A stretch of 41,526 bases of DNA from Alphaproteobacteria bacterium (GCA_017554365.1 JAFZIM010000052.1:1-41526), one strand, 5' to 3'; counted from the stretch's first letter, positions 6,920 to 41,399 are shown. Program-made: numbers and translations. The notes: generated by a model not told the origin, from the letters alone.

Positions 6920-7297
6920 ATGGCACGTATAGCAGGTGTTAACATTCCAAGTGAAAAACGCATTGAAATTGCGTTGCAATACATTCATGGTATTGGGCCG
7001 GCTAAATCAGCACAAATTTGTTCTGCATTGAAATTGAAAGACGGATTGCGTGCAAAAGATTTAACTGACGAGGATGTTATCAAAATTTCAAATTACATTG
7101 AACAAAATTTCAAAGTAGAAGGTGATGTTCGTCGTGAAGTTGCAATGAATATTAAACGTTTGCAAGATTTAAAAACATATCGCGGCATACGTCATCGTAA
7201 TCGTTTACCAGTTCGCGGTCAACGCACACAAACAAACGCAAGAACCCGTAAAGGAAAACGCGTTGTTGTTGCAGGTTCAGCGACCAAGGGTAAATAA
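6920..7297 (+). CDS. rpsM: 30S ribosomal protein S13
   Basis: 125 aa. [26 protein letters not shown] is typical of S13. Confidence 0.97.
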
Positions 7298-7360: not shown

Positions 7361-7744
7361 ATGGCAGTTACAAAATCAAAGAAGAAAGTTGTAAAGAAAG
7401 TATCACATGGTATTGCACATGTGGTTGCAACAAATAATAATACACGTATCACAATCACAGACCAAAGCGGTGCAGTTTTGACATGGGCAACCGCTGGGGC
7501 TAATAATTTCAAAGGTGCAAAAAAATCAACACCATACGCAGCAACAGTAGTAGCAGATGCAGTTGGTAAAAAAGTTGCTGAAATGGGTATGAAAACAATC
7601 GATGTTTTAATGCGCGGTATTGGTCAGGGTCGTGAATCTGCGGTTCGTGGTTTAGCAAATGCAGGATTGATTGTTCAATCTATTACAGACACGACACGTA
7701 TTCCACACAACGGGTGCCGTCCAAAGAAAGTTCGTCGTGTTTAA
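7361..7744 (+). CDS. rpsK: 30S ribosomal protein S11
   Basis: 127 aa. GIAHVVATNNNTRITITDQSG…FKGAKKSTPYAA and C-terminal IPHNGCRPKKVRRV are typical of S11. Confidence 0.97.
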   Translation: MAVTKSKKKVVKKVSHGIAHVVATNNNTRITITDQSGAVLTWATAGANNFKGAKKSTPYAATVVADAVGKKVAEMGMKTIDVLMRGIGQGRESAVRGLANAGLIVQSITDTTRIPHNGCRPKKVRRV

Positions 7745-7855: not shown

Positions 7856-10780
7856 TTGAAAATCAAAAGTTTAGTTAGATTTTTGATGCTTGTTATTGCT
7901 TGCAATGTGTCAGTGCAAGCCGTTTTTGCTGATGATTTTGATGCTGAGGTTTTTTTAAATAGCTTAGAATTAAATCCACGACGTTGTTTTGGGGGTGGGC
8001 AGATATACGGCGAAGGTGGTGTTGGTTGTGCACAATGTCCAGGAGGCCAATCGGCTTCAAATGGTATCGATGAATGTTTTGCAAATTGTAAGAATGCGGA
8101 ATTTATTTCGCTTGGTGACGTATGTAGCGGGGATCCTAGTTGTGCTGCATCTATTACCGTTTTTATTATTTCTAAAAATTTATGTCAAAAATGTAAAGCG
8201 GGTGACAATAAATATTATTTAGAAAACAGATGTGTTTCAGCAACTGATTGTAATAATAATAACATGGTTGCTAATACGGTACTCGAAGACGATATTAATG
8301 TTGGTGTTTGTGAACCATGTGCCTCGGATCAATGTCGCAGTGGTAATGAATGTAAAGCCACCGATACAAATATACACAAACACAGTACTGATGGTATTTG
8401 TGTTGAATGTAGTGATAATCAATGTTTTAATGTCGATACTAATGTATGTATGGATTTGGACTCAACAGATATTATAAACAATAGAATGTATCGTGATACA
8501 AACGGAAATTGTGCTGCATGCGAAGGTTATACTGTTCCTCAAATTCCTAGACGTGCAAACGGTCCGGCATGTGTGACGCAGGAGCAGTGTAAAGACGGAT
8601 ATGGTATGCTTGAAGTTTCAGGTATAGACAACGCAAGATGTGGAAAATGTGAGAAACTTAGTGCAGTTCCTGAATTTCCTGATGTTGACCCTGGTGAATA
8701 TACATTAACAATTTATAAAAAAGAAACAGGAAGTGATAGGTATGTTTTTGCGAATCATCAATGTTGGGCTACAAATCCAAAAAAAGGAGGTTTCGCATAT
8801 AAGTATATGAAACCCGACGGACTTGGCAATTGGATTGCAGAGGATGATGTAAGCAAAATTGGTGAAACCAAAACAGGTTGTGTCGACCCGGAAAGACCTG
8901 TATGGGTGGTTGATGGATTATATTATGATATATATTATTGGCCAGAACATTTTGAATGTGGAACATGTGTAAATGGAATTTGGGAGGAGGATAGCGCACA
9001 TGCTGGTGGATGGAAATGCACATTATGTGAATCAGGTAAGATTCCTTTTGGTGCATGTAAAACATGTGCAGATTTAAATATGAATGCTGGTTGTAGTGTT
9101 GATTCTACCACAGGTCGATTAATAGGTGTACCACTTGGCGGATATTATTTTGAAAATGATGGAAGCAGGTCTTCCGCCCCATTATTTTGTGCGAAAACCG
9201 CTGGTGACGGTACGGACATGTGTTGGACGGGGGATAACAATAATAATACTTGTACCCCATGTGATTTAAATAATACAGTAGTAAGCCCAAGAACTGCAAC
9301 TGATGGTCGTCCGTATAATGAAAAGACAAATGCCACTTGTTCTGAAGGTTATTATATTAACAATGGTACATGTACTGTATGTCTTGGTGCAGGTAAGGGT
9401 TGGTATAAAAATGTAGATGGTAGTGGTGAACATCTGTTTTGTGATGATGCTTTTGAAAATGGTTTTTTAGCATATAAATGTGTTAATGATTTAATCAACA
9501 ACTATTATCGCGGTAATTGTGATAATGCCGGGGGAATTTCGTATAATAAATGGATAGCCCTGAATGAAGAAAACTTGAAACAAGTCATTAATGCGACAAA
9601 TGTGAATGTTAATAGTTTTATGCAGCAAGGAAAAGATCTTGGATATTTAGATGCAAATGATAAAACAATTAAAATGTGTACTTTACAAAATTTGGGGGTA
9701 GATAATAATGGCTTGGGTGCGGATGTGTGGGATGGTATAGGTATTGGATTACAAGAGATAGATGGAAATTCTGGGACCTTGCTTTATATAGATAGAGGGT
9801 GTTTCAAATGTAAGGAAGGATATGGATCTACAACTGACTCAGATTTACCAAATCTTTGTAAGAAATGTCCTAGCAATCAAGGCCCTATATTTATAGGAAA
9901 TGGGGATAATAAATACAAACGTCCAACAGCCGCCGAAGAAAATAAAGGATATTATGGTTGTAGTCCTTCATGTAAATTTGAAGGTTGGGGAAAATATAAT
10001 AATGAATGTGTATTGTGTTCAGATAAAGGAATGCAATCCATAGCAGGTTCAGAATATAATATTTGTCAAGCATGTCCAAAAGGAACAGGTTGGAATGAAG
10101 GATCTAAGACGTGTGGGGATTGTCCTAGTGATTCACCTTCGTATAATGGGAAATGTTTGGATTTTACAGGTTTGAAAAAAGAAATTTGTGATCCTAATGG
10201 TGCAAATTGTTCATCTAATAACCCTTTTTATATTGAAGCTGGTCAAATTAAATTTAGAAACGATTACCAAATAGATGAAAATGGTAATATTCAATATAAA
10301 GGTACGGGTAAAGATAACCCGCACAGATACGAAGCGGCTAAGAGTACAGACGGAAAGTATTATTGGGTGCCTTGTCGCGGGGGTAGTGATAATAATCTTA
10401 GTTATTCATGTTGTTATGAAGGTAAAAGAGTAAGACAAACAGATAATACGAGATTTGTATTACCTGGAATGGCATGTACAAAAGATAGTAGAAATAATAC
10501 TAAATCGACTTTACTTTGTGATGATGTTAACCCTGGTTTTGTGAGAGGCGAATCCGAATATCCAGATATTGATAGTTCATATAATATGGAAAATCTGACC
10601 AGTTTTATAGTAAATAGAGTTTGTAATAAACGTGTTGGTATTTCTAATTTATGCGATAATAATAATTGTATTGTTATACCAGAATGGTTGAAAGTGGAAA
10701 GTTTATCAACAAAATATTTGGATTATACCGGTAAAAGCGGTATGTCAAATTCTAGCCCTACTAGACCTGGAAAAACATAA
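7856..10780 (+). CDS. P0: secreted 974-aa cysteine-rich protein with 16 CxxC motifs (furin/ephrin-receptor-like/VSP-like repeats); function unknown
   Basis: Uninterrupted 2.9-kb ORF. TTG start is 5 nt after GGAAGGA. N-terminus MKIKSLVRFLMLVIACNVSVQA/VFA looks like a Sec signal peptide. I hand-counted about 69 Cys, including CAQCPGG, CQKCKAG, CEPC, CVEC, CAAC, CGKC, CGTC, CTLCESG, CKTC, CTPC, CTVC, CFKCKEGYG, CKKCPSNQG, CVLCSDKG, CQACPKGTGW and CGDCPSD. No C-terminal TM segment or beta-barrel is evident. Confidence 0.9.
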   Translation: MKIKSLVRFLMLVIACNVSVQAVFADDFDAEVFLNSLELNPRRCFGGGQIYGEGGVGCAQCPGGQSASNGIDECFANCKNAEFISLGDVCSGDPSCAASITVFIISKNLCQKCKAGDNKYYLENRCVSATDCNNNNMVANTVLEDDINVGVCEPCASDQCRSGNECKATDTNIHKHSTDGICVECSDNQCFNVDTNVCMDLDSTDIINNRMYRDTNGNCAACEGYTVPQIPRRANGPACVTQEQCKDGYGMLEVSGIDNARCGKCEKLSAVPEFPDVDPGEYTLTIYKKETGSDRYVFANHQCWATNPKKGGFAYKYMKPDGLGNWIAEDDVSKIGETKTGCVDPERPVWVVDGLYYDIYYWPEHFECGTCVNGIWEEDSAHAGGWKCTLCESGKIPFGACKTCADLNMNAGCSVDSTTGRLIGVPLGGYYFENDGSRSSAPLFCAKTAGDGTDMCWTGDNNNNTCTPCDLNNTVVSPRTATDGRPYNEKTNATCSEGYYINNGTCTVCLGAGKGWYKNVDGSGEHLFCDDAFENGFLAYKCVNDLINNYYRGNCDNAGGISYNKWIALNEENLKQVINATNVNVNSFMQQGKDLGYLDANDKTIKMCTLQNLGVDNNGLGADVWDGIGIGLQEIDGNSGTLLYIDRGCFKCKEGYGSTTDSDLPNLCKKCPSNQGPIFIGNGDNKYKRPTAAEENKGYYGCSPSCKFEGWGKYNNECVLCSDKGMQSIAGSEYNICQACPKGTGWNEGSKTCGDCPSDSPSYNGKCLDFTGLKKEICDPNGANCSSNNPFYIEAGQIKFRNDYQIDENGNIQYKGTGKDNPHRYEAAKSTDGKYYWVPCRGGSDNNLSYSCCYEGKRVRQTDNTRFVLPGMACTKDSRNNTKSTLLCDDVNPGFVRGESEYPDIDSSYNMENLTSFIVNRVCNKRVGISNLCDNNNCIVIPEWLKVESLSTKYLDYTGKSGMSNSSPTRPGKT

Positions 10781-13228: not shown

Positions 13229-16042
13229 ATGAAAAAATTGTTAATTTTACCTGTGTTAATCGCTATGTGTATGGCGGATTTCGGCGCTTTTGCTGCTGCA
13301 CCACGTGGTGGAAGAACTGGCGGAACACCTGCTGCATCAAATGCTGGTGGTAATGTCAAAGCTGCTCGTGCTGCTAAACAAAACACCCAGGTCAAACCAG
13401 GAACAGCATCTGGTAAAGCAACTAGTGGTACAACAGGCAACAAAACATCAGGTTCTAATACTGGTAGTCAAAAGAATAGTGCGCCTGCTGCATCAAATGC
13501 TGGTGGTAATGTCAAAGCTGCTCGTGCTGCTGCTACACAGAAAGTGTTGAATACTGGAACAAAAATTGCACAGAAAACAGAAAATACTGTGGTACCTAAA
13601 GAATGTCAGGACGCATATTATGGCTGTATGGATACATTCTGTATGTTGGATAATACATCAGGTGGTCGTTGCCAATGTAGTGACAGAAGTAAAGATTTAA
13701 ACCCATTATTGGACGAAATTACAAAAATCGACCAAATTGCTTATACAATGGCTACCGAAGGTGTAGAAAGATTGCAAATGGGTGAAAATGCAGAACAGGT
13801 TATTGCGATGGCAAAAGCAGCAGGTGCAAAGGTTTCATCTACAGATAACAGTTTGGGAATTCAAAGTGCAGACGATTATGCTGCTAATGCTGGTAAAAAC
13901 AAAAAATCAACAAGAAAAGAATTGGATTTAAATGCATTCAAAGTGGGTGTATTTGATGACGATGATGATGTTTTTGGTGAAGATGAAAAATCAGAAGCCG
14001 AAAAGAAAGCAGAAGTTTTGGAAGACAGCATGGCAAATAAACTTGGTGATGATTTACGTTCTGCTGCAAATAAACTTTGTGTTGAACAAATGCCAAAACA
14101 ATGTGTAGATTCAACATCTATGTTGCAATTGGCTTATACACAAAAAATTAAATCAGATTGTAATGCATACGAAAATTCTTTGAAACAACAAAAGATTGCA
14201 AGTAATCAAAAATTGGCTGCTGCTGAAAAAGCATTACGTGAAGCCGCTCTTGAATCTTTTGAAAAAGAAAATAAATATGAATTGGGACCATGTATAACTG
14301 AATTTACAAAATGTATCCAAAAAGATGCAGGTTGTGGTGAAGATTATACAGGTTGTACAACTTTGTCTGCAAAAGACAATGTAAGAAACAAAACAGGTCA
14401 ACAAACAGTTATTCCAGGAACAACTGTTAAAATATCTGTTTCTACATTGGAAGCAATCACAGCAAAGAAATCAATGTGTGAACACATTACAAAACAATGT
14501 GTAAAGGCAAACCAAAATGATGCAGTATGGACAGCGTTCTTGAAAAATGTTGCACCTGCATTGAAATCAGCTGAAGAACTTGCAGAAGAAAAGTTACGTT
14601 TAGAATGTATACCAAACATTTCTGAATGTTTCCAAAAAGCTTGTGCACAGAAATTTGATCCAAAAGCAAAAGAAGCAAACTATGATTCATGTTTGTCTGA
14701 TCCTTCTATCGTAAAAGATTTATGTAAGGTAAAATTGGAACCATGTTTGGAAGCAACTGGTGGTTCTTATGCAAATGCTGAATCTTCTTCTTTGTGGAAT
14801 GGTGTTTTAGCGGCTTTGGGTGCTATGCGTGTTGATGCATGTACAAGTGAAGTAAAAGCATGTTTGGAATCTGATGATGTTTGTGGTAAAGATTACGGTA
14901 GATGTGTCGGTTTGGATACAGAATCTATCGGTGAAATGTGCCCAACAGATAAGTTGACTGCTTGTATGGCAAAGAATGAGAATAATGAATCTACTGTACG
15001 TGCATATGTTGCAAGAGTTGCACAAGGTATCGCATTAGGTATTGATAGCAATATGCTTACCGTTTGTCAAAAAGCTGCTGATGATGCTATGACAAAGGTT
15101 TGTGGTGCAACTGATTCTTGTGAATCTTTGACATTTGATGGCAGAATATTTGCTGATAATTTAAATGTCCAAGTATGTAGAAAAGGTGCTGAGGGTGTGT
15201 ATGAATGTGCTAATACAGCTGATGGTTTCGATGCCAAATATGTTTTGAATGGTGAAGTAGTTCCAAATATTACAGGCATGTTTGATTTGGCAACTATAAC
15301 ATTCGATACAGAAAATGGTTTTGGTGTTGATACTGGATTGGCCTCTTATACAGAAAAGACCAGTAACGGACGTTATTATACAGGTGATAAATGGGCTGAC
15401 AGTGTTGCAAAACAATTAAACGCAGCAATAAATGCTAAATGGAATACAATTAAATCTGACCCAACAGTCACATATTGTATGGAAGGTCGTCAAGTCCAAG
15501 GTTTTGATAGCAAGAAATTTGGTAAAAAGAATGATAAAGAATCTATACGTTTTCCAAACTTGTTAGACAACAAGAGAGATGTTATGATTTATGCTTTATA
15601 TAAATCAATGTCTTCTGCATATTCTGATGCATTGGATGGATTACAAGAAAAACGTGAAGCTGCTCAAAAGACCATTGATGATCGTTTAGCAAGAATTGAT
15701 GGTGCTGGTGAATCAGCTCAGGATAGATTAAATGAAAGTGCATGTCAGAGTGGTTATGCTAGACCTGACCCTAACTGGAATGGTGATAGAAATAAGAGAC
15801 GTGCTAGAGCATATATAAGACAGCTTGTTGATGTTAATGCATCTTATAATGCGGACACAAATGTATGTACTGCTGAAACAATGCAATATACATGTACTAA
15901 ATATTTATCACCAAGTTGTAGAATCTTTGACAATGGAACAAAGACAAAGACAAAGACAATACAAATGCATAAATATAACAGAGAGGATGCATTGGGTAGT
16001 AATGGTTATACAGCGAAACCAAAAAATCCTGATGAATTCTAA
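13229..16042 (+). CDS. P1: secreted cysteine-rich protein, unrecognised paralogous family (937 aa)
   Basis: ATG at 13229 is 6 nt after AAGGAG. Signal peptide MKKLLILPVLIAMCMADFGAFA. Family signature CQDAYYGCMDTFCMLDNTSGGRCQC at 13604-13678. Long blocks are shared with P2, P3 and P6. Confidence 0.92.
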   Translation: MKKLLILPVLIAMCMADFGAFAAAPRGGRTGGTPAASNAGGNVKAARAAKQNTQVKPGTASGKATSGTTGNKTSGSNTGSQKNSAPAASNAGGNVKAARAAATQKVLNTGTKIAQKTENTVVPKECQDAYYGCMDTFCMLDNTSGGRCQCSDRSKDLNPLLDEITKIDQIAYTMATEGVERLQMGENAEQVIAMAKAAGAKVSSTDNSLGIQSADDYAANAGKNKKSTRKELDLNAFKVGVFDDDDDVFGEDEKSEAEKKAEVLEDSMANKLGDDLRSAANKLCVEQMPKQCVDSTSMLQLAYTQKIKSDCNAYENSLKQQKIASNQKLAAAEKALREAALESFEKENKYELGPCITEFTKCIQKDAGCGEDYTGCTTLSAKDNVRNKTGQQTVIPGTTVKISVSTLEAITAKKSMCEHITKQCVKANQNDAVWTAFLKNVAPALKSAEELAEEKLRLECIPNISECFQKACAQKFDPKAKEANYDSCLSDPSIVKDLCKVKLEPCLEATGGSYANAESSSLWNGVLAALGAMRVDACTSEVKACLESDDVCGKDYGRCVGLDTESIGEMCPTDKLTACMAKNENNESTVRAYVARVAQGIALGIDSNMLTVCQKAADDAMTKVCGATDSCESLTFDGRIFADNLNVQVCRKGAEGVYECANTADGFDAKYVLNGEVVPNITGMFDLATITFDTENGFGVDTGLASYTEKTSNGRYYTGDKWADSVAKQLNAAINAKWNTIKSDPTVTYCMEGRQVQGFDSKKFGKKNDKESIRFPNLLDNKRDVMIYALYKSMSSAYSDALDGLQEKREAAQKTIDDRLARIDGAGESAQDRLNESACQSGYARPDPNWNGDRNKRRARAYIRQLVDVNASYNADTNVCTAETMQYTCTKYLSPSCRIFDNGTKTKTKTIQMHKYNREDALGSNGYTAKPKNPDEF
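13328..13375 (+). repeat. Perfect 48-bp direct repeat, copy 1 (inside P1)
   Basis: cctgctgcatcaaatgctggtggtaatgtcaaagctgctcgtgctgct, encoding PAASNAGGNVKAARAA. Confidence 0.95.
13484..13531 (+). repeat. Perfect 48-bp direct repeat, copy 2 (inside P1)
   Basis: Identical 48-mer located 156 nt (52 codons, in frame) downstream of copy 1. Confidence 0.95.
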
Positions 16043-16046
16043 AAAA

Positions 16047-16068
16047 ATGCCCTTCGGGGCATTTTTTA
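16047..16068 (+). terminator. Rho-independent terminator after P1
   Basis: ATGCCC (16047-16052) / GGGCAT (16057-16062), loop TTCG, then a T-run. Confidence 0.75.
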
Positions 16069-18819: not shown

Positions 18820-21552
18820 ATGAAAAATATTTTGAAATTCTTATTGTTAGCAATTGTATGTTGCATGTTTAATGCAGATGGTTTCGCTGCACGTGCACCT
18901 GTGAAATCAAGCAATCAAAATAAACCTGTACAAAAAGCACGTGCTGCTTCGGGTCAAAAGGCAATAAATTTAGGAACAAAAATTCAGGTTGCAACAACCA
19001 CATCTTCGCCATGTCAGGAAAAATACGATGCGTGTATGGATACTGGGTGTGTGATGGATAATGATTCCGGTGGTCGTTGTTTGTGTTCTGATCAATACAA
19101 AGATTTAAGTGATAAATTAGAAGAATTAAAAAAGAAAGATGCTGATACTTACAAAATCGCAAATATTGCCAAAGCAAGCATAGAAGATGGCGAAGATGTT
19201 GATGAAGCCATGGATTCCATCTTTGGTGATGAAGAAAGTGATTTCGATGTTAGCCCGGCTTCATCAGGTGCAACTGGGGATAAATTGCGTGCAGAAATGC
19301 ATAATATTTGTATTGAAAAAATACCTGAATGTAAATTGCAATTTGTTTTGGTTAAAAATATGTATATTCAGAAAATCAAATCAGATTGTGCCGCTTTTGA
19401 TAATGCTTTGCGGGAACAAAGTATCGCAAGCAAAGAAAAAAGGGCAGAAGCAAAAAAAATGGTGCGTGAAGCAGCCCTTGAAAAATATGAAGAAAATAAC
19501 AAATATGATTTGGGTCAATGTACAATTGAATTCACAAAATGTATAAAAACAACTGCTGAATGTGGCAATGATTTTACTGGCTGTGTTGATAGTGTTGGTA
19601 AAGATAAAATTTATGGCAAAGACATAGATGTATTTACTATCAAAGGTGAAAATTCTTCTGTGGTAATTGCTAAATCAACATACGAAATGTTGGAAAGTAA
19701 AAAATTAATTTGCGAAAGTGTTTTGAAAAATTGTGTTGATGTCAAAGACGAAGTTTGGAACGCGTTTTTGGCAAATTCTGCACCTGAAATAAAATTGGCA
19801 GAAAATAAATCAGAATCAAATATTCGTTCGTCTTGTTTGGAAAATATTTCAAATTGTTTTATTAATGCGTGCAAAGATAGTATCGAAGGTGATGACAAAG
19901 AATCTTATGATATGTGTTTGACACGTCCTGAAACGATGAAATCTTTGTGTCGTGTTCAAATGGAACCATGTTTGGCTGCAACTGGTGGTTCGTATGATGA
20001 ACCTGAAAAATCAACTTTATGGCCAAGCGTTTTAGCAAAATTATCTGCTATGCGTGCTGATTCTTGCACTGAAGAAATGAAAGAATGTATGCAAAGTGAA
20101 GACAGATGTGGCCCAGATTATGCAAATTGTATTGGGTTGGATACAAATATAATTATGCGTATGTGCCCGTATGATAAATTGCCTGGCTGTCAAAAAGTTT
20201 ATGGTGAAGATAAAATCCAAGGCGATGAAATTTATGACGAAGTTGCCAGAATTATCGAAGGCGTAATATTAAATATTGATAATGATTTATTAAAGGTTTG
20301 TGAAAATGCTGCTGAAACAGCAATGACAAAAGTTTGTGGTTCTGCTGAAAGTTGTGAGGTTTATGCAGCAGGTGGAAAAATTGGCGCACAATCTTTGAAA
20401 TATCAGGTTTGCCAATATTCAACAGATTCCCCAGATTCAACCGAAGGTTTCAAATGGTTCGATTGTCGCGAAAGTTTAGATCAAATATCTGATGCTGAAT
20501 TGGGACGTGTACAAGACGCCAAAAATGAAGAATTGGGTAATGTAAAACCATTTGCTGGTGTTATATCTGGTGTTATTAAATGGGAATCAGTAGAAATAAC
20601 AGACGATGGTTTAATTGATATAGATAAATATATGGAAGCATTAGAAAAAGAAAAAATCACAGAAGAAGAACGTGTTCGTGTCAAAGCAGAAATAGAGCAG
20701 GTGCAATCAGATATTAATCGTGTTATTTCATCTGTGGAACAAGACCAATGGTTGCAATTTTGTATTTCGGGTCGTCATATAACGGGCGTGACGGACAGAT
20801 TTGCGGATAATAAAGTACGTTTTCCAAAATTGGCAAATAATGTCCGTAAACAAATTGCTACCGCTGCATTACATCAGGCAAAAGAAAATTATTATGCCGA
20901 ATATGATAAATTATCCGCACAAATGCAACAAGATTTGGTGACAATAAGCGAAAGATTGGCAAATAACTTAAAAGAAAATGGCAAAGATGCTAAAAAAGCA
21001 GCGGCACGTGAGGCATGTGTTAATTTAGCTGCTGTGTCAGCATTTGCCAAAGCACCAGTCGGTCAATCTTTGTGGGCAAAGATTATTGTTGGTATAATTG
21101 TTGTTGCTGCGATTATTGTTGCAACAGTGTTTACATGTGGTGTTGCTGGTGGTGCTTCACTTGGATTTTTAGCAGGTGTTGCTACTGGTTCAATGATAAC
21201 TTCGGTGGTAGGGACTATTTCGGCAACGGGGGCTTTGATTGCGGCGTCAACTGCGACTGCCGTTGCTGGTGCCGCGGGAATTTCAGCAGCAGTTGATGCT
21301 GGTATAAATGCAACAACTGATAATAGTAAAATAGCAGCAGGAGAACAAACACAAAATCATGGTGAATATGCGGCGAATGAATGGAATTATCAAGAAAAAA
21401 TAACAACAGATTTTGATAATGATACAATGATTTGTAAGAAATGTGTTGTGAATCGTAAGTGTCGTTCTACAAAATGGTCTATATTCCGTGATAGATATTG
21501 TTCTAGTTGGGATCCTTATAGTGAACCAAGATGTACTGAAATTCAATTCTAA
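18820..21552 (+). CDS. P3: cysteine-rich protein of the same family with a C-proximal Gly/Ala-rich hydrophobic (glycine-zipper-like) region (910 aa)
   Basis: ATG lies 2 nt after the P2 stop, which suggests translational coupling. Signal peptide MKNILKFLLLAIVCCMFNADGFA. Signature CQEKYDACMDTGCVMDNDSGGRCLC at 19012-19086. Hydrophobic region at about 21073-21300. Tail CKKCVVNRKC…CSSWDPYSEPRCTEIQF. Confidence 0.92.
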   Translation: MKNILKFLLLAIVCCMFNADGFAARAPVKSSNQNKPVQKARAASGQKAINLGTKIQVATTTSSPCQEKYDACMDTGCVMDNDSGGRCLCSDQYKDLSDKLEELKKKDADTYKIANIAKASIEDGEDVDEAMDSIFGDEESDFDVSPASSGATGDKLRAEMHNICIEKIPECKLQFVLVKNMYIQKIKSDCAAFDNALREQSIASKEKRAEAKKMVREAALEKYEENNKYDLGQCTIEFTKCIKTTAECGNDFTGCVDSVGKDKIYGKDIDVFTIKGENSSVVIAKSTYEMLESKKLICESVLKNCVDVKDEVWNAFLANSAPEIKLAENKSESNIRSSCLENISNCFINACKDSIEGDDKESYDMCLTRPETMKSLCRVQMEPCLAATGGSYDEPEKSTLWPSVLAKLSAMRADSCTEEMKECMQSEDRCGPDYANCIGLDTNIIMRMCPYDKLPGCQKVYGEDKIQGDEIYDEVARIIEGVILNIDNDLLKVCENAAETAMTKVCGSAESCEVYAAGGKIGAQSLKYQVCQYSTDSPDSTEGFKWFDCRESLDQISDAELGRVQDAKNEELGNVKPFAGVISGVIKWESVEITDDGLIDIDKYMEALEKEKITEEERVRVKAEIEQVQSDINRVISSVEQDQWLQFCISGRHITGVTDRFADNKVRFPKLANNVRKQIATAALHQAKENYYAEYDKLSAQMQQDLVTISERLANNLKENGKDAKKAAAREACVNLAAVSAFAKAPVGQSLWAKIIVGIIVVAAIIVATVFTCGVAGGASLGFLAGVATGSMITSVVGTISATGALIAASTATAVAGAAGISAAVDAGINATTDNSKIAAGEQTQNHGEYAANEWNYQEKITTDFDNDTMICKKCVVNRKCRSTKWSIFRDRYCSSWDPYSEPRCTEIQF

Positions 21553-21555
21553 ATT

Positions 21556-21579
21556 AAAAACACCCGATTGGGTGTTTTT
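21556..21579. terminator. Bidirectional rho-independent terminator between P3 and the convergent 330-aa gene
   Basis: AAAAACACCC (21556-21565) / GGGTGTTTTT (21570-21579), loop GATT. A/T runs on both sides. Confidence 0.75.
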
Positions 21580-22572
21580 TTATTCTAATTCTTCCAAATT
21601 CTTTACAACACGTATTCCCATTGATTCAAATTTTTTTATTGTTTCGTCTATGTCCATTATATTTTGTGAACGTAAATATATTGTTGGAATAAATGGCGTG
21701 TCTTTTGATAATGTTAATAATTTTTGTATTGGTGATTCTTTCTGTTTGCCTGCTGCAAACCATGTGTCATCGTCCATTATCCAAAAATCTTCATCACTAT
21801 GTTCGTAAATTAAATTTTTATCAGAGCAAACAAATTCATCAATGATTTCATAATTGATATGTTTTGCATCAAAATATTTTGTTGTGAAATTTTCTAATTT
21901 GTTTTCTTCTTTGGATGTTAATTCGTCATCAAAATTTATATCTTTGAATTGTGGAATTGATAAATCTTCATTCATATTTAATGAAAAATCATTTGCTGAA
22001 TTTTGGTCGTCATTATCAAAAGGTAAATCAAAATCAGTTGGTATTGGGAAATCTTCCGGTGTTGGTTCGTTATTTGTTGGTTTTGGTTTTGTGTCGTTGT
22101 CTGTTTTGTTATATACAGATACGGCCCCCATCAAAGATTGATGATGTTTTGCACGCATATATGGAACTTTTAATTCAGGTGGCATATCAGATGGAAATAT
22201 ATTTTCTTCCGATTCGGTTTCTTCTGTTTCTTTCTTTTCTTCTTCATCAGCCACCGGGGCAGGTTTAGAAAATTTTGTTTTTATAAATTCAAATATTTTA
22301 TCTATAAATGGAATTTTTATTAATGATGCTTTATTTTTATATACGTTTATTGATGTTGCAATATAAATTGGAATTGCTGTGTACATCAATGTCGCAAATA
22401 CAAAACCTGCAAAACCATGAAAAGATGCGTGAAAAAATTTCCACCAATGATTTGCTGAAAAAGCATCAAAATTGAATATATATTGCAAAATCAACCAAAG
22501 AATAAAAAAGTATTCTATGGTCCATTTTACCAATTCAATATTTGTTTTAAAAAATTCTTTTATCTTTTGCAT
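21580..22572 (-). CDS. Hypothetical membrane protein (330 aa): N-terminal TM helices, acidic disordered linker, C-terminal globular domain
   Basis: Hydrophobic stretches WTIEYFFILWLILQYIF and FAGFVFATLMYTAIPIYIATSI. These are followed by a D/E/P/T-rich stretch, then an ordered C-terminal domain of about 100 aa. No family recognised. Confidence 0.7.
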   Translation of the reverse strand: MQKIKEFFKTNIELVKWTIEYFFILWLILQYIFNFDAFSANHWWKFFHASFHGFAGFVFATLMYTAIPIYIATSINVYKNKASLIKIPFIDKIFEFIKTKFSKPAPVADEEEKKETEETESEENIFPSDMPPELKVPYMRAKHHQSLMGAVSVYNKTDNDTKPKPTNNEPTPEDFPIPTDFDLPFDNDDQNSANDFSLNMNEDLSIPQFKDINFDDELTSKEENKLENFTTKYFDAKHINYEIIDEFVCSDKNLIYEHSDEDFWIMDDDTWFAAGKQKESPIQKLLTLSKDTPFIPTIYLRSQNIMDIDETIKKFESMGIRVVKNLEELE

Positions 22573-32360: not shown

Positions 32361-34691
32361 TTATTTACAATAACCCCACAATTTATTTGTACCGGTGTTT
32401 TTATAGAATGTTTCGTTCAAAGTATCACCAGTCGTATCGTGTTTACCATCTGCTTGGGAATCAATCCATGGAGTATCAACCCATGTTCCTGATTGTTCTT
32501 TACATTCAGCAGCAATTTCATTAACTAAACTTTGTTTAAGTGTTCTGAATACTTTATCTACATCAGCCAACAAAGATTCTGACAATACCCCAGATGTGCT
32601 CGAAGGACGAGTGCAATTTTGTAAAGCATATCTTACCAGTTGTTGATATAAACTGCCGATATAATATTCGCCACATTGTTGATAAAGAACAGAATAATCG
32701 CCACCTGATAAAGGCGCTTCTGTTCCACCTGCACAGACATCGCCTGTTCTGCATGGACAGCAAGAAGTTGCAGTTCCACTTGATGCGTAATCTTTTTCTT
32801 GGGAATTAATGTCGCATAGATAGTAATTATATCTGCAACTGGTATATCTTTTGTTTGCTTCTTCTTTTTTGCAAATTAATGAATATTTTGATGAAGAATT
32901 ATAATCTTCTTTCTTGGTAATCAACAAATTAGATTTATCAAAAGGATTGATAATTGTTAAATTACATCTTGCATTATTTGCATATCTTTTATCCCCAGGT
33001 GAATATGTTCGGCAAGCATAAGGATAAGAGTGAACCGAATCGTTTTTTGATACAGCACATGTTTTTTGCACGAATTTTTCAAGTAGAGCAGGGCAACTTT
33101 GTTCAATAGTTGCATCTGTGATACCAGCCATCGTAGATACCAATAATTTTAATCCGTTCGGGCCACCACCATAAAGATTACTACATGCTTTTAATTTTTC
33201 TTGGCACATTTCTTCGGATGTTTCCAATTGTTGTCCTAAAGAAACCTCTGCAGAATTATCAGAAAAGTTTTTTAATTGTTCTGCTTTTTTCAAATAACAT
33301 GTATTCACTACACTTAAACATTCTGATTTAACCTGTTGAACACGTTGTTTTTGACCTTGATAAATTTCTACAATTGCTTGACGAAGAAATTCATCCCAAA
33401 CTTTATCTGCATTATCTGTGCATAAACTTAAACTTTTTTTCGCATAACTGCGTTTAGATTGTAATATTTTTACGAAGTCAGTATTTTGACGATTTGTTAA
33501 TACATCACCTTCTAAAGATATTTGATTCACAAATTGATAAAATTCAGCGGTGTATAATGGTTCGCCAGTTCTTTGGTTTAAATATTTTCCAGTTATGTCC
33601 AGACAATGAATATAATTTTTACCGCATGCAGTATCTTGGGTTAAATCTTCACGAACCTTTGAAATACAATCATTTAATGACAAATAATTATGTGCATTAT
33701 AATTTTCTAATCTTGCATCTTGCATTTGATGTCTTGTTGAACGAATAGCGGCGTTTGCTTCTGTTTTTTTACCAGCCAAAGTATTGGCCAACACTTCGCA
33801 ATCATTTTCAATATACATACCATACGCAGAAGCAACCATTTTTAAATCTGATTCTTTGCAATCTTCTTTTATAATTTCAGAACATTGTGCGTGAACTGCG
33901 TTATATAATGCTTCGCCTGAAAGATTCGCAATATCTGCACCACCAATTAAATCCGTAGTTGACCATATTTCTTTTAATTTTTTATCTGCTGAATCAGAAG
34001 AAGATGTAGATGATTTTTTTGTGTCTTTTAATACATTTGATATGTTGCTTAAAGTTTTTGCACTTTCTGATTTATCTTTTTTCATGGCCGCTTCACCTTC
34101 GGAAGCAGAACCCATTGCATGAACTTCATCTGCTGTTTTTGAAATAGCATCAATATTTATATCTTGGAAATCTTTTAAACTATCATTTGTTTGCGATAAT
34201 TTTTTTTCTGTGCCTTGGATTTCTTTTAAACGTGAAGAACAAACGCATCTGCGGTAAGTTTCATTTTGTATGGCACAAAATTGATCCATACAAGAAAAAT
34301 ATGAATCCCTGCAATTTGTATATTCTGCGCCAAAAGTTTTGGTTGTTTTTGTTGCGACAGATGCACGAGAAATTTGTTTTCTTGTTGCCGAACGTGAAGT
34401 TGTTGCCTTTCTTGTATTTATAGAATTTGTTGCAGCACGACTTTTAACAACTTTTTTTGATGATGTTGTTGTTCTTGTTGTTTTTTTATTTCGTGTCGTT
34501 GCAGAAATTTTTTTATTTTCGTTGTTTGAACGAGATGATGCCCTGTGTACAACATTTGTTGAATTTGTTGTTCTTGAATAAACCGCATTTTGTCCCGAAG
34601 AACGAGAAATATTATTGGATTGACGACCAGCCGCATTAGCAACGCTAATACACACAGAAACCCCCAGTAAAAAAAGAAATATTTTTCTCAT
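32361..34691 (-). CDS. P4: secreted cysteine-rich protein, divergent member of the same family (776 aa)
   Basis: Signal peptide MRKIFLFLLGVSVCISVANA. A basic S/T/R/K/N-rich region of about 110 aa follows. Signature CRDSYFSCMDQFCAIQNETYRRCVC lies at 34313-34239 with spacing identical to the other members. Later blocks align loosely with them (LYNAVHAQCSEIIKEDC…, ACGKNYIHCLD). The start is ambiguous: ATG at 34691 or TTG at 34718. Confidence 0.88.
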   Translation of the reverse strand: MRKIFLFLLGVSVCISVANAAGRQSNNISRSSGQNAVYSRTTNSTNVVHRASSRSNNENKKISATTRNKKTTRTTTSSKKVVKSRAATNSINTRKATTSRSATRKQISRASVATKTTKTFGAEYTNCRDSYFSCMDQFCAIQNETYRRCVCSSRLKEIQGTEKKLSQTNDSLKDFQDINIDAISKTADEVHAMGSASEGEAAMKKDKSESAKTLSNISNVLKDTKKSSTSSSDSADKKLKEIWSTTDLIGGADIANLSGEALYNAVHAQCSEIIKEDCKESDLKMVASAYGMYIENDCEVLANTLAGKKTEANAAIRSTRHQMQDARLENYNAHNYLSLNDCISKVREDLTQDTACGKNYIHCLDITGKYLNQRTGEPLYTAEFYQFVNQISLEGDVLTNRQNTDFVKILQSKRSYAKKSLSLCTDNADKVWDEFLRQAIVEIYQGQKQRVQQVKSECLSVVNTCYLKKAEQLKNFSDNSAEVSLGQQLETSEEMCQEKLKACSNLYGGGPNGLKLLVSTMAGITDATIEQSCPALLEKFVQKTCAVSKNDSVHSYPYACRTYSPGDKRYANNARCNLTIINPFDKSNLLITKKEDYNSSSKYSLICKKEEANKRYTSCRYNYYLCDINSQEKDYASSGTATSCCPCRTGDVCAGGTEAPLSGGDYSVLYQQCGEYYIGSLYQQLVRYALQNCTRPSSTSGVLSESLLADVDKVFRTLKQSLVNEIAAECKEQSGTWVDTPWIDSQADGKHDTTGDTLNETFYKNTGTNKLWGYCK

Positions 34692-34761
34692 TCCTATACT
34701 TTTAAATAATAATAACAAAAATAAGATATTTTAAGCAAGAATATTTTAAATAAATTTCGCA

Positions 34762-35170: not shown

Positions 35171-37372
35171 ATGAAAAAAATGAAATTTTTGTTGGTTTTA
35201 TTGATGTTTCCGGCTGTTGCGTTTGCTGCGGGTCGTGGTGATGGTGCTGCTCGTGTTGGAATGAGTAGTAGGGGTTCACAGGCAGGGGCAAGAATGTCTA
35301 TCACATCTTTAGATGTTAAAGAAGCCGCATCAAAAGCTCCAATTTCTACAAAAGTTGAAGAACCAGAAGAAGTCGAAGAAATCGTCGAAGTCGTTGAAAA
35401 ACCGGCAAAAAAGACGACTAAGGTTGTTGTAAAAGAAGTTGAAGAATCAGAAGAAATAGAAGAAACAAAATCTTCTAAGGGTTCAGATGATTGTCGTGAA
35501 TCATATCGTGATTGTATGGATCAATTCTGTTTATTAGACGAAAGTCAGGGTGAACGTTGTGCTTGTTCTGATAATATAGAATTAGCAAAAAGTAAAATTA
35601 AGGCCGTTTTAGATATTCAAGCAGAAGCAGATAAATTGTTTACAGAAGGTGTGGAACGTGAACAATTAGGTGCTAAGGCAAGATTGGTATTCACAGAAAA
35701 TTCCGGAAACAAAGGCGTTTCAGGAACTAATTTCTTGGCGTGGCTTGGTGGTGAAAGCGACGACGAAGATGATGATGTTGGTGAAGATGTCACAATGGGT
35801 GATGATTTATACCAAATGGCTGTGAAATATTGTTCTGCTGAATTAGAATCTTGTGGTTCAAAGGGCGAAATGGAAGCGATGTTATATACTCGTATGATTA
35901 CCCAAGATTGTAAAAATTATGATGCTTATTTAAAAGATCAAAAAGCAAATGCAGAATCTAATAAACGTATTGCAGAATCTGCTGTGCGTAAGGCACGTCT
36001 TGAAATGCTTGATACAACCAATAAATACAATCGTGGTGAATGTTTGTTGGCTTATCGTGCATGTATAGCAGATAAGGGTGGTTGTGGAACTAATTTTGAA
36101 AACTGCCTTGATAAAAAATTATTAGAACGTCGTTCAAATGCTTGTGAAAACATATTGGATCAATGTATGGCTGTTCGTGATTATGTTAAACAAGATTGGG
36201 CCCAAGAATCAAAAAGTGTTTTGGAAGAAGCAGCAAAATATGCTGATAAAAATAGACGTGGAACATGTTTGGCTCAGGCACAATTCTGTTTGGAAGAAAG
36301 TTGTTCTACATCAACAAATGCAGAATGTTTAACAAATGTAAATGTTGCTGCTGGAATTTGTCCTATTATTACAGAATGTGAAGAAATTATCCCAGGATTC
36401 CAAGGTGTTATAAATGATAAATTGGGATTTTTGAGAACAAAATTCTGTGAAAATGATATTGATAAATGTTTGCGTGATAAATGTGGTCAAGATTTCACAA
36501 AGCCAGAATGTGTTGGTAAAAAACCTTATGAAATCGCTGCTTTGTGTCCACAAGATATGTTCCCATCATGTAATGGTGCTGCACAATATGACATAATCGT
36601 TCAATCTGCGATTTTACAGATGGATTATCAGATGTTGCAGGGCTGTGTGAATTATTTCGGTGAACAATTATCAAAAGTTTGTGGAACAGATATGGCTTGC
36701 TTGCCAATTGACGCAACAATTGAAGCATTGACAGATTTACCAGACACCGAAGAAGGTTTGGCAAAATTACGTAAACAGGTTGTTGCAAATTCTGATGCCG
36801 CAGTTGAAGAATTCTTTGCACAATTTGAACGTGATAAAACCGTTTCTGCTTGTGCTGACTCTCAATCTGTTGAAACCAAGAAAGTCAAAGGTAAAAATTC
36901 TTTGGGTGTAAGCGTATTTAATTCTGCTAAATTATTGGCAAAAATGTCTGCTGAAAATCGTAATATACGTGAATTAGATTCCAAGATTGCTGAATTGGCA
37001 CGTAAAAAAGATTTGGCAGAAGCAAAAGAAATTTGCTTGAAGACATATAAACCTGAAAAACCAGATAATTCAAAGTCAAATTATAGTTATATACACACAG
37101 TATCATTTGAACCTAATTTACGTAATTGTCACGTATGTCGTATGCAACAAGTATGTGAAGAAGGTGGCGAATCCAAGGCAACATCTGCGTTGAAAGCGGC
37201 GGCTGGTGGTTTGTCTGCTGGTGCATCTGCTGGAACAATGATAAGTGCTGGTTGGGGAACTGCTATCGGTGGTGTCGTCGGTGCTGTTGGTGCCGGTGTA
37301 ATGGGTGCTATGTCCGGTGGTAAAAAAGAATTCTGTCAGGAAATTGAATCCTGCGAAGATATTAATATGTAG
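35171..37372 (+). CDS. P5: cysteine-rich protein of the same family with a glycine-zipper-like segment inserted in the C-terminal Cys tail (733 aa)
   Basis: ATG at 35171 is 8 nt after AGGAA. Signal peptide MKKMKFLLVLLMFPAVAFA. Signature CRESYRDCMDQFCLLDESQGERCAC at 35492-35566. Gly/Ala segment AAAGGLSAGASAGTMISAGWGTAIGGVVGAVGAGVMGAMSGG at about 37187-37320. Ends CQEIESCEDINM. Confidence 0.9.
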   Translation: MKKMKFLLVLLMFPAVAFAAGRGDGAARVGMSSRGSQAGARMSITSLDVKEAASKAPISTKVEEPEEVEEIVEVVEKPAKKTTKVVVKEVEESEEIEETKSSKGSDDCRESYRDCMDQFCLLDESQGERCACSDNIELAKSKIKAVLDIQAEADKLFTEGVEREQLGAKARLVFTENSGNKGVSGTNFLAWLGGESDDEDDDVGEDVTMGDDLYQMAVKYCSAELESCGSKGEMEAMLYTRMITQDCKNYDAYLKDQKANAESNKRIAESAVRKARLEMLDTTNKYNRGECLLAYRACIADKGGCGTNFENCLDKKLLERRSNACENILDQCMAVRDYVKQDWAQESKSVLEEAAKYADKNRRGTCLAQAQFCLEESCSTSTNAECLTNVNVAAGICPIITECEEIIPGFQGVINDKLGFLRTKFCENDIDKCLRDKCGQDFTKPECVGKKPYEIAALCPQDMFPSCNGAAQYDIIVQSAILQMDYQMLQGCVNYFGEQLSKVCGTDMACLPIDATIEALTDLPDTEEGLAKLRKQVVANSDAAVEEFFAQFERDKTVSACADSQSVETKKVKGKNSLGVSVFNSAKLLAKMSAENRNIRELDSKIAELARKKDLAEAKEICLKTYKPEKPDNSKSNYSYIHTVSFEPNLRNCHVCRMQQVCEEGGESKATSALKAAAGGLSAGASAGTMISAGWGTAIGGVVGAVGAGVMGAMSGGKKEFCQEIESCEDINM

Positions 37373-39871: not shown

Positions 39872-39901
39872 TTCACAAAAGATATATTCCTAGATAATAA
39901 T

Positions 39902-39927
39902 AAACCGCCGTTATGGCGGTTTATTTA
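39902..39927 (+). terminator. Rho-independent terminator after P6
   Basis: AAACCGCC (39902-39909) / GGCGGTTT (39915-39922), loop GTTAT, with a T-rich trailing sequence. Confidence 0.65.
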
Positions 39928-40011
39928 TATTGTCAAATCGTTCCTAGATATTTTTAAGGTGGTCTTTGGTATAATACAGATGTGTACAAACAAAACCAAG
40001 GGAGAAATATA

Positions 40012-40356
40012 ATGAAAAAAATATCTTTGTTTGCAATGATGGCGATAGTCCCAATGTGTGGTGCTATGGCCGGACAAAATAAAAACATGAATTATAAACA
40101 ACCTACATATTGGTCTGTGACAGAAGTTATGACTTTGCCAGATAATTCACCTGTTGTAATGCGTGGTCGTATTACAAAAAATATGGGTGAACAAATGTAT
40201 TTGTTTGAAGATTCTTCAGGTAATATTGTTATGGAAATAGATGAAGAAGATTGGAATGGAAATACAGTTCGTGTAAATGATGTTGTGACCATTTATGGAA
40301 AAGTTGATAAAGGTTCTGATAGTGTAGAAATAGATGTGGAATCTATTGAAAAATAA
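40012..40356 (+). CDS. YgiW/YdeI-family periplasmic bacterial OB-fold (BOF) protein
   Basis: Signal peptide MKKISLFAMMAIVPMCGAMA. The core LRGRITKNMGEQMYLFEDSSGNIVMEIDEEDWNGNTVRVNDVVTIYGKVDKGSDSVEIDVESIEK parallels E. coli YgiW (…YVFKDASGTINVDIDHKRWNG…VEIDV…) as I recall it. Confidence 0.8.
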   Translation: MKKISLFAMMAIVPMCGAMAGQNKNMNYKQPTYWSVTEVMTLPDNSPVVMRGRITKNMGEQMYLFEDSSGNIVMEIDEEDWNGNTVRVNDVVTIYGKVDKGSDSVEIDVESIEK

Positions 40357-40358
40357 AA

Positions 40359-40381
40359 ATGCCCGCAAGGGCATTTTTTTA
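40359..40381 (+). terminator. Rho-independent terminator after the ygiW-like gene
   Basis: ATGCCC (40359-40364) / GGGCAT (40369-40374), loop GCAA, T-run at 40375-40381. Confidence 0.75.
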
Positions 40382-40427
40382 TTTGTTCTTTTTTTATGTT
40401 GTTTTTTGTGATATAATTATATTTGAT

Positions 40428-41399
40428 ATGAGAATCTTGAAATATATACCTTTTATGATTATGTGTATGTTTGCAAATACTGCTATGGCGGGTTGGCAAT
40501 ATAATGGTTATTACATAAAAGATGGTTATTATTCTGATGATGGTTCAAGATTTATAATTGGTTTTAATGGCGGGCTGTCTTGGGGTAATGCATCTATTAC
40601 AAATGAAGTTGGCAGTTTACAGGCATCGTATTATATGAATTCTACTACTGGTGTTGTTATATCTGGTACAGCGTATGCTTTGCTTGATTCAACACAACAG
40701 GCAGAATATGTTGATATTGGTATTGGTGATGTATCTGAATTAAAAGCAAAAAAAGATTTTTCTAAAACTGCTTTTGCTGCGGGTGCTTATATTGGATTTA
40801 CAATACCTAATCATCCACAATGGCGTTTACAGGCGGGATATGACCATATTGCAGAAACTGATTATGACAGAATACCTTTGTTCGAAGGTGATATATCTTT
40901 GACAAGTGGATATAGCGCACATGTGTATAGCAGTGGTGTTAAATCTACGATTACGACAGACATTATATCAATAATGGCGGTATATGATTTCTTTGAAGGA
41001 AATACAAAACCTATGAATACTATAATCCCTTATGTTGGCATAGGGGCAGGATATTCAATGTCAAAAACAACATTAAAATTAACAGATATATTTGGTGATT
41101 TATCTCAAGATGCAGATTTAATAAATTATGGAACTTTGGAAAATGGTATTTTGGTTTTTGATAATCCAAATGGTTCTGATAAATATCCAACATCTAATAA
41201 TATTGCGTTGTTGGGGACACTTGGTATTTCTTATGGGATAAATGAATATACATATCTTGATTTAAATGCGCGTGTAATGTATGTTCCAAAAATCAGTTGG
41301 CAGATAGCCAATTCAGATGGAACACAACATCGTGATTGGTTCGGTGCTGAAAATATGATATACAGCAACGTTATGTTGGGTTTAAGATTTGAATTTTAA
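40428..41399 (+). CDS. Outer-membrane beta-barrel protein (porin/OMP_b-brl-like), 323 aa
   Basis: Signal peptide MRILKYIPFMIMCMFANTAMA. Alternating hydrophobic pattern rich in Gly, Tyr, Ser and Thr. C-terminal beta-signal …NVMLGLRFEF ends in Phe. Start trimmed from 40359, which lies inside the terminator hairpin. Confidence 0.65.
   Translation: MRILKYIPFMIMCMFANTAMAGWQYNGYYIKDGYYSDDGSRFIIGFNGGLSWGNASITNEVGSLQASYYMNSTTGVVISGTAYALLDSTQQAEYVDIGIGDVSELKAKKDFSKTAFAAGAYIGFTIPNHPQWRLQAGYDHIAETDYDRIPLFEGDISLTSGYSAHVYSSGVKSTITTDIISIMAVYDFFEGNTKPMNTIIPYVGIGAGYSMSKTTLKLTDIFGDLSQDADLINYGTLENGILVFDNPNGSDKYPTSNNIALLGTLGISYGINEYTYLDLNARVMYVPKISWQIANSDGTQHRDWFGAENMIYSNVMLGLRFEF

Follow-up and report, generated by a model that had tools for sequence, protein, structure and literature searches.

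The two-transmembrane (2TM) glycine zippers of SlyB, YfgH, OsmB, and YiaD are outer membrane elements; SlyB oligomerizes, and similar rings have been predicted for YfgH (bioRxiv 10.64898/2025.12.22.696046). AlphaFold confidence is low for glycine zippers of this kind (bioRxiv 10.64898/2026.06.08.730324). Here, we analyzed a stretch of 41,526 nucleotides (nt) from an alphaproteobacterium (GCA_017554365.1 JAFZIM010000052.1:1-41526; hereafter, the window), which encodes six large, Cys-rich, exported paralogs, P1, P2, P3, Pm, P5, and P6 (Table 1). Two of them, P3 and P5, carry long, uncharged, Gly/Ala-rich inserts, and each is encoded next to a paralog that lacks one, P2 and P6, respectively. The two inserts are different physical classes: that of P3 begins with a classical transmembrane (TM) helix, and that of P5 is a weakly hydrophobic glycine zipper. 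The pairing of an insert-bearing gene with an insert-less neighbor is conserved in related genomes.

The source of the window is a Candidatus Enterousia-like gut alphaproteobacterium of the order Rs-D84. Enterousia is placed in this order, whose members have genomes of <1 Mb; an obligate dependence on other cells, as symbionts or parasites, is predicted for them (PMC12306168). They are without standard nutrient transporters and are thought both to depend on partner cells, a proposed source of metabolites, and to encode many unexplained membrane proteins (PMC12306168). Samples from the rumen, the hindgut, the human gut, and the termite gut commonly contain Rs-D84 and Candidatus Enterousia. One of the related loci that we examined lies on a circular chromosome of 958 kb (L014).

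Both inserts stand out from the proteins that carry them. The P3 insert (WAKIIVG...AAVDAG) consists of 77 uncharged, Gly/Ala/Ile/Val-rich amino acids (aa), and the P5 insert (AAAGGLSAG...GAMSGG) of 42 Gly/Ala-rich aa. The first-pass annotation of the window had described a hydrophobic region of about 75 aa in P3 at nt 21073 to 21300; the region is real and its start is as given, whereas its end lies at 21303. The position given there for the P5 insert (about nt 37187 to 37320) was roughly right, the exact limits being those in Table 1. P3 has a longest run of 71 aa free of D, E, K, R, H, N, Q, and P, and P5 has one of 42 aa. Composition-preserving shuffles gave a median run of 11 to 12 aa and maxima of 30 aa (P3) and 27 aa (P5), and none reached the observed length (0/5000). 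In P1, P2, and P6, the longest uncharged runs (9 to 11 aa) are at chance level. On the summed Hessa scale, in which membrane insertion is favored only below zero, the minimum values are +9.1 for P1 (outside the signal peptide), +9.9 for P2, and +10.8 for P6. The earlier description of P6 as a protein with no such segment is borne out.

An alignment of all six paralogs showed that the inserts occupy different sites. That of P3 precedes the CxxC motif of the C-terminal tail, at the place where P2 has a hydrophilic stretch, as had been proposed. The P5 insert lies within the Cys tail itself, again as proposed, after CxxC-x5-C and before the last two Cys, between CHVCRMQQVC and FCQEIESC. GxxxG repeats run through G774-G778-G782-G786-G790 in P3 and start at aa 692, 696, 708, 712, and 724 in P5. 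C-terminal sorting signals (LPXTG, PEP-CTERM, and GlyGly-CTERM) were considered for the hydrophobic segments and rejected, because these are followed by 16 to 80 aa of conserved Cys-rich sequence and by no short basic tail. A helical-wheel "glycine moment" test was non-significant for P3, P4 (a separate Cys-rich protein described below), P5, and the SlyB positive control alike and, being uninformative, was dropped.

In the first part of the P3 insert, TM1, a classical stop-transfer helix, was tested as a segment of at least 19 aa predicted to insert (negative summed biological hydrophobicity), and IIVGIIVVAAIIVATVFTC scored -3.49 kcal/mol. TM1 is kept as IVIGIIVVAAIVVA[CT]VFT[CG]G in all full-length P3 orthologs (P0002-P0038; 53 to 81% identity), in which the motif SAFAKAPVGQSLWAK precedes it. 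The distal part is a candidate for the return helix or helices of a hairpin. Across P3 orthologs, the uncharged insert measures 44 to 139 aa, with one outlier of 20 aa, and is closed by an acidic boundary. The minimal orthologs (P0011, P0025, and P0028) retain exactly two hydrophobic helices of 20 to 22 aa, about 8 aa apart and with an acidic end, and since the shortest inserts are thus two helices with a short loop, an inner membrane hairpin is suggested. The beta module that follows the P3 insert is common to P2, P5, and P6, with Cys aligned across the paralogs and five Cys kept. Because this tail is homologous to the tails of exported paralogs that have no insert, the insert should end on the side of the membrane on which it began, and a hairpin with both ends in the periplasm would be the most economical topology for P3. 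Conserved Cys residues are found at the end of TM1 or the start of the loop (VFTCG; VFTGCGAGAGCAALG in some P3 orthologs), and they would face the cytoplasm if the hairpin model is right. In the P5 insert, Tandem Repeats Finder reported no array, and in that of P3 only two, both weak and short; slippage may contribute to the variable length of the P3 insert and explains nothing else.

At 42 aa, the P5 insert fits the layout sought in a 2TM zipper, namely, two adjacent helices of about 20 aa with (G/A/S)xxxG repeats, joined by a short turn, and about 42 to 46 aa in total. In the AlphaFold2 model, helices 681-699 and 712-727 lie between the adjacent beta strands 664-677 and 731-744, so that the insert, which leaves and re-enters at the tip of a beta-hairpin, must fold back on itself. 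Its Hessa sums are +6.3 and +4.1 kcal/mol and its Kyte-Doolittle (KD) values 0.9 to 1.5 (at most 1.52), compared with +4.4 and 1.51 for the zipper of Escherichia coli SlyB, read as a control from NC_000913.3. Being as weakly hydrophobic as that of SlyB, the P5 zipper is not predicted to act as a stop-transfer segment of the inner membrane. Conservation was measured over 120 ortholog clusters of 68 to 89% identity. No indels were found in the insert, the Cys-to-Cys loop is 59 aa long in 119 of the 120 clusters, and the GWGTAIG core is at least 98% conserved; its W, the G that follows, the I, and the final G show no change even in distant orthologs. The insert as a whole is conserved at 0.87, versus 0.84 for the protein body. 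Orthologs from other gut metagenomes keep the zipper down to 44% identity, and the sole P5 without a full zipper is an open reading frame (ORF) that ends inside it (L106).

These data bear on the simplest alternative, in which the segments are disordered, low-complexity Gly/Ala/Ser/Thr linkers with no membrane role. Low AlphaFold2 confidence in both inserts, the variability of the distal P3 segment, and a short tandem DNA repeat would all fit a linker. However, TM1 of P3 combines strong hydrophobicity with sequence conservation, the zipper of P5 keeps one length and several unchanging residues across the 120 clusters, and the exclusion of all charge over 42 to 71 aa is abnormal for disordered linkers. 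We regard this alternative as highly improbable.

The first-pass annotation had treated both inserts as membrane anchors of one type that were acquired independently. Taken further, the two would be equivalent inner membrane anchors, independently and recently gained, that tether the soluble neighbor in a heteromer. That both are long, uncharged, and GxxxG-containing, that they sit at different sites, and that the gene pairs are co-transcribed and their pairing conserved is in line with such an explanation, which we nonetheless consider unlikely. The P5 values lie well above zero and resemble those of SlyB rather than those of a stop-transfer helix. Neither insert is recent, given a zipper kept at 44% identity and P3-type inserts in homologs of about 40% identity. 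Furthermore, the P3-type site is occupied throughout the order, so that a gain in P3 is less parsimonious than losses from P1 and P2.

The history of the inserts was followed on a neighbor-joining tree (crude and without support values), which separated Pm, P5, P6, and a large clade of P1, P2, P3, and distant rpoA-linked genes. Inserts ahead of the CxxC motif are found throughout this large clade, including in single-copy genomes, and the insert behind the CxxC is confined to P5 and universal within it. The different sites speak for separate origins. Since the P3-type site is filled in most family members across the order, P1 and P2 look like secondary losses after duplication, and the P3-type insert is probably ancestral, having been lost in P1 and P2 and largely in P6 too. 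The idea of independent acquisition thus stands as regards two separate events, whereas "acquired" does not suit the P3 insert. At the P3-type site, the P6 of the window has a Gly-containing remnant (Table 1), and six P6 orthologs (L096, L099, L110, L114, L115, and L119) have uncharged Gly/Ala/Ser/Thr runs of 18 to 26 aa; given these runs in distant orthologs, "unanchored" is not universal for P6.

P2-P3 and P5-P6 are two-gene operons, in agreement with the first reading of the window. Two nucleotides separate the P2 stop from the P3 start, and 21 nt separate the P5 stop from the likely P6 ATG, which has the ribosome-binding site GGGAGAG. Behind each of P1, P3, P4, and P6 is a terminator-like hairpin, and neither pair has one inside it. 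The comparison drew on loci around homologs of P3 (79, from genomes) and of P5 (41, from metagenomes), in which ORFs were classified by best match and hydrophobicity. ORF starts in these loci were taken mechanically, and negative intergenic gaps may be artifacts. The gene order rpoA-(P1)-P2-P3-X330(-)-P4-ccrM(-)-slt is kept. Two adjacent family genes, the first with no insert (+6.7 to +11) and the second with a strong TM segment (-0.5 to -4.5), were found in 23 loci as well as in the window, with intergenic gaps of -43 to +14 nt in the 23 pairs. One locus has an insert-less gene followed by a weak one (L059), and in one both copies are anchored (L041). All recovered P2 orthologs are insert-less. 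Where a single family gene is present at the rpoA locus, it usually has a moderate two-helix insert at the same site (+1 to +4; 28 loci), with the pattern PKSPxPPK-FGKILSAVAIAGAAVAIPF-TGGLS-...AGIGLLG. P6 comes next after P5 in 37 loci and is absent from none in which the downstream sequence is long enough, and the arrangement Pm(-)-P5-P6 is conserved. Orthologous operons therefore preserve the pairing of insert with no insert. The proposal of one anchored and one soluble paralog per operon holds for the insert-bearing and insert-less pairs, though not for the two inserts as a single anchor type.

Copy number was also seen to track anchor strength among the rpoA-linked loci (L011-L079). Where there is one gene, it has a moderate insert; where there are two, one is insert-less and the other strong (<0). 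This trend looks like subfunctionalization after duplication.

We lean, with little more than even confidence, toward a model in which P3 is an inner membrane hairpin anchor and P5 carries a zipper that acts after export, each holding its insert-less partner in an envelope complex. TM1 of P3 would be a stop-transfer helix in the inner membrane, its Gly/Ala/Ser/Thr-rich variable loop would lie in the cytoplasm, and a weaker second helix would return the chain and leave the Cys tail in the periplasm. P5 would pass through the Sec translocon, its zipper being too weakly hydrophobic for retention in the inner membrane. As a helix-turn-helix at the tip of a beta-hairpin, acting like SlyB-class 2TM zippers, it could then, once exported, enter a membrane (most likely the outer one) and/or pack subunits laterally. 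P2 and P6 would be held through their translationally coupled, insert-bearing partners. The operon structure suggests a heteromeric complex of an anchor and a partner.

Several points weigh against this model. The first set concerns the zipper families Gly-zipper_YMGG (PF13441), Gly-zipper_Omp (PF13488), Rick_17kDa/2TM (PF05433), and OmpA (PF13436), for which the curated gathering threshold was the criterion. The P5 segment scores 9.0 bits against PF13441 (cutoff, 28.9), and its scores against all Gly-zipper Pfam families are below threshold. On the supporting side, among 26 orthologous P5 segments, sub-threshold matches were obtained to Gly-zipper_YMGG in 19, Gly-zipper_Omp in 12, and Rick_17kDa in 3, with best E values of 3.5e-4 (PF13441), 4.9e-3 (PF13488), and 0.013 (PF05433). 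Homology to SlyB is not claimed, as hhalign of the zipper alignment versus E. coli SlyB gave a probability of 6.8% over 17 columns. The likening of the segments to the Rickettsia 17-kDa antigen and related Gly-zipper families in the first-pass annotation thus fails as a statement of membership. The P5 segment works like a glycine zipper but fits none of the Gly-zipper families.

The second set concerns topology and assembly. AlphaFold2 gives the P3 insert a predicted local distance difference test (pLDDT) score of <50 and no helices, and the P5 zipper one of only 36 to 47. The two distal segments of P3, its own return-helix candidates, are only marginally hydrophobic, with Hessa sums of +3.1 each, and as the candidates are two in number, P3 may have an odd number of spans. 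No Lys or Arg occurs in the proposed cytoplasmic loop of P3 or of the inspected orthologs, so the positive-inside rule lends no support. For P5, the signal peptide ends in ...FPAVAFA, followed by AGRGD, which is of the signal peptidase I type and has no Cys and no lipobox. Known outer membrane zipper proteins are lipoproteins, which leaves P5 with no known route to the outer membrane. One locus has no anchor in any copy (L034), two have a single unanchored copy (L054 and L070), and the heteromer is deduced only from gene order and translational coupling. Signal peptide types were judged by eye throughout; a lipoprotein reading of the signal peptide Cys in P3, P4, and P6 was rejected because positions -3 to -1 are unlike a lipobox.

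A different role for the zippers is suggested by weak matches to Bacteriocin_IIc (PF10439). The zippers of P5 and P4, perhaps with the distal part of P3, might not be anchors in the membrane of their own cell but insert into or permeabilize that of a partner or host cell, in the manner of a glycine-zipper toxin or class IIc bacteriocin, or serve as a conduit for metabolites. A sub-threshold Bacteriocin_IIc match had an E value of 0.047, further such matches were found in 17 of the 26 orthologous segments, membrane-damaging glycine-zipper effectors have been described (PMC12955049), and metabolite uptake from other cells has been proposed for the transporter-poor Rs-D84 (PMC12306168). Like class IIc bacteriocins and glycine-zipper toxins, the P5 segment has GxxxG-rich helices of low hydrophobicity. 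However, the PF10439 score is 14.1 bits against a cutoff of 27.1, and the likeness is compositional and weaker than that to the Gly-zipper families. The window has no double-glycine leader peptide and no immunity, export, or secretion-system gene, and the zipper is embedded in a structural protein of 745 aa, between disulfide-forming Cys. Such a role is accordingly quite improbable.

The family to which P3 and P5 belong is real but restricted to one lineage. An exhaustive profile search of 1.84 billion representative proteins returned 1034 clusters at an E value of <=1e-3. Its homologs, recorded as Candidatus Enterousia or "MAG Alphaproteobacteria," are without exception annotated as hypothetical. 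Profile searches of all paralogs against Pfam, NCBIfam, and PDB sequences gave no match above threshold, and Foldseek of the P3 and P5 AlphaFold2 models against the PDB gave best E values of 0.32 and 0.37, from meaningless long-helix matches. The members share a plan of 750 to 950 aa with an N-terminal signal peptide, a disulfide-rich, elongated, all-alpha body, and, except in P1 and Pm, a small Cys-rich C-terminal beta module. They contain 32 to 41 Cys each, and about 20 Cys columns are invariant in the six-paralog alignment. The P3 model (pLDDT, 75.5) has helices of 45 to 58 residues in the body plus the beta module, and the P5 model (pLDDT, 71.2) follows the same plan. A rule requiring CxxC within the last 150 aa, applied to 147 family representatives, rejected 109 as partial; it was too strict, and its counts were not used. 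The low-complexity regions behind the signal peptides differ strongly among the paralogs. That of P1 is basic, Gly/Ala/Ser/Thr-rich, and about 110 aa long, with the internal repeat APAASNAGGNVKAARAA present twice, that of P5 is acidic and Glu/Val/Lys-rich, and that of Pm is basic and Ser/Thr/Arg/Lys-rich. In P5 orthologs, such regions are poorly conserved (0.43, versus 0.84 for the body).

P4 is a separate protein; its membership in the P1-P6 family was rejected (hhalign probability, 0.1%). The first-pass annotation had not counted it in the finding on P3 and P5. Its segments match Gly-zipper_YMGG (E value, 0.003) and Gly-zipper_Omp (E value, 0.006), both below threshold, with segment A at 17.6 bits against a cutoff of 28.9 and at 17.0 against 25. 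P4 always lies head to head with a 330-aa protein, and the pair is kept beside the P3 locus in about 60 loci. By eye, the 330-aa protein has a hydrophobic N terminus with about two candidate helices and an acidic, low-complexity middle. In a broader conception, the P1-P6 family and P4 would make up a disulfide-stabilized envelope apparatus found only in Rs-D84. P3 would sit in the inner membrane through its hairpin, P5 and P4 would sit in or organize the outer membrane through SlyB-like glycine zippers, and P2 and P6 (perhaps also P1) would be soluble between them; the whole might be a trans-envelope scaffold or a cell-contact structure that attaches to a partner cell and draws metabolites from it, with no known counterpart in fold or architecture. 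We think this apparatus unlikely.

The window has a G+C content of 35%. Eight large, Cys-rich, exported proteins, six of which are the paralogs aligned here, account for 20.4 kb, or about half, of its 41.5 kb. They are interspersed among housekeeping genes, namely, secY, rpsM, rpsK, rpoA, rplQ, rnhB, pgk, clpP, clpX, and those for a CcrM-like methyltransferase and an Slt-type lytic transglycosylase. One exported protein, of 974 aa with 69 Cys and 16 CxxC motifs, is encoded inside the ribosomal alpha operon, between rpsM/rpsK and rpoA/rplQ. Neither Pfam nor NCBIfam gave a match to it, nor did tblastn in any of the 120 related loci, so that it seems confined to this genome or a very close clade. 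Near the end of the window, a periplasmic BOF (OB-fold) protein is followed by a 346-aa ORF with no family match, which ends in ...GLRFEF and, by eye, has the look of an outer membrane beta-barrel. If correct, this assignment supports a diderm envelope.

Table 1. Positions of the paralogs, their inserts, and other features in the window
Feature	Position (nt)	Strand	Description
rpsM/rpsK	6920-7297, 7361-7744		Upstream of the 974-aa protein gene
974-aa Cys-rich protein	7856-10780	+	
P1	13175-16042	+	955 aa, 38 Cys; signal peptide; no hydrophobic insert; own transcription unit
Terminator-like hairpin	16042-16067		After P1
P2	16232-18817	+	861 aa, 38 Cys; putatively unanchored paralog; gene 1 of P2-P3 operon
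P2 hydrophilic stretch	18560-18664		aa 777-811
P3	18820-21552	+	910 aa, 41 Cys; insert-bearing paralog; gene 2 of P2-P3 operon
P3 insert	21073-21303		aa 752-828
P3 TM1	21082-21144	+	aa 755-775; IIVGIIVVAAIIVATVFTCGV; KD, 2.99
P3 distal insert	21139-21303	+	Zipper with four GxxxG, aa 774-800; Ala/Ser/Thr-rich, aa 801-828; acidic boundary AAVDAG
P3 C-terminal Cys-rich beta module	21358-21552	+	aa 847-910; CKKC...C...C...C...F; strands 847-909, pLDDT ~90
Terminator-like hairpin	21556-21579	+	Closes P2-P3 operon
330-aa protein (X330)	21580-22572	-	
P4	22696-24885	+	729 aa, 22 Cys; exported; two glycine zippers
P4 first zipper	23680-23757		aa 329-354
P4 second zipper	24466-24540		aa 591-615
Pm	32361-34718	-	785 aa, 32 Cys; divergent paralog; no insert, no Cys tail; transcribed divergently from P5-P6
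P5	35135-37372	+	745-aa ORF, 36 Cys; probable start ATG 35171; zipper-bearing; gene 1 of P5-P6 operon
P5 glycine-zipper insert	37196-37321	+	aa 688-729; between Cys674 and Cys734 of the tail
P6	37379-39871	+	830-aa ORF, 37 Cys; likely start ATG 37394; putatively unanchored; gene 2 of P5-P6 operon
P6 remnant	39587-39673		VGVGL..GGVG
Terminator-like hairpin	39899-39925	+	Closes P5-P6 operon
BOF (OB-fold) protein	39982-40356	+	
346-aa ORF	40359-41399	+	

Collectively, the data suggest a conserved split between membrane-attached and free subunits that uses two different hairpin modules, which would offer the first structural hint of the arrangement of these proteins in the envelope. The evolutionary pattern is one in which single-copy genomes have one weak hairpin and duplicated genes comprise one strongly anchored copy and one without a hairpin.

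Among known systems, chlamydial OmcB and OmcA offer an analogy only. They, too, are large envelope proteins with signal peptides, about 4% Cys, and clustered genes, in a bacterium of reduced genome that depends on a host or partner. In contrast to them, the family in the window is all-alpha, with no sequence, Pfam, or fold similarity to OmcB or OmcA detected, and the lytic transglycosylase encoded in the window indicates that peptidoglycan is present. P3 resembles re-entrant, helical-hairpin inner membrane anchors of exported proteins, of N-out/C-out topology, in its hydrophobic helix of about 21 aa and in having exported-type domains on both sides, and its minimal orthologs do so in the second helix of 20 to 22 aa after a short loop. 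Unlike such anchors, P3 has a Gly/Ala/Ser/Thr-rich loop, ranging from about 8 to >90 aa, with no positive charges, and the return helix is marginal in the P3 of the window; no established family of such architecture could be named.

The closest likeness in layout is that of P5 to the SlyB-class zippers of SlyB/Pcp, YfgH, OsmB, YiaD, and the Rickettsia 17-kDa antigen. At about 42 aa, the P5 zipper is close to their profile lengths of 43 to 46, and it shares with them two GxxxGxxxG helices joined by a turn, Lys on both flanks, and equal hydrophobicity. The P4 segments match the same profiles but are single zippers about 240 aa apart and do not form one 2TM unit. The SlyB class consists of small lipoproteins, whereas the zipper of P5 is inserted at a beta-hairpin tip near the C terminus of a Cys-rich protein of 745 aa, and glycine-zipper hairpins would thus extend beyond small lipoproteins to modules spliced into large proteins.

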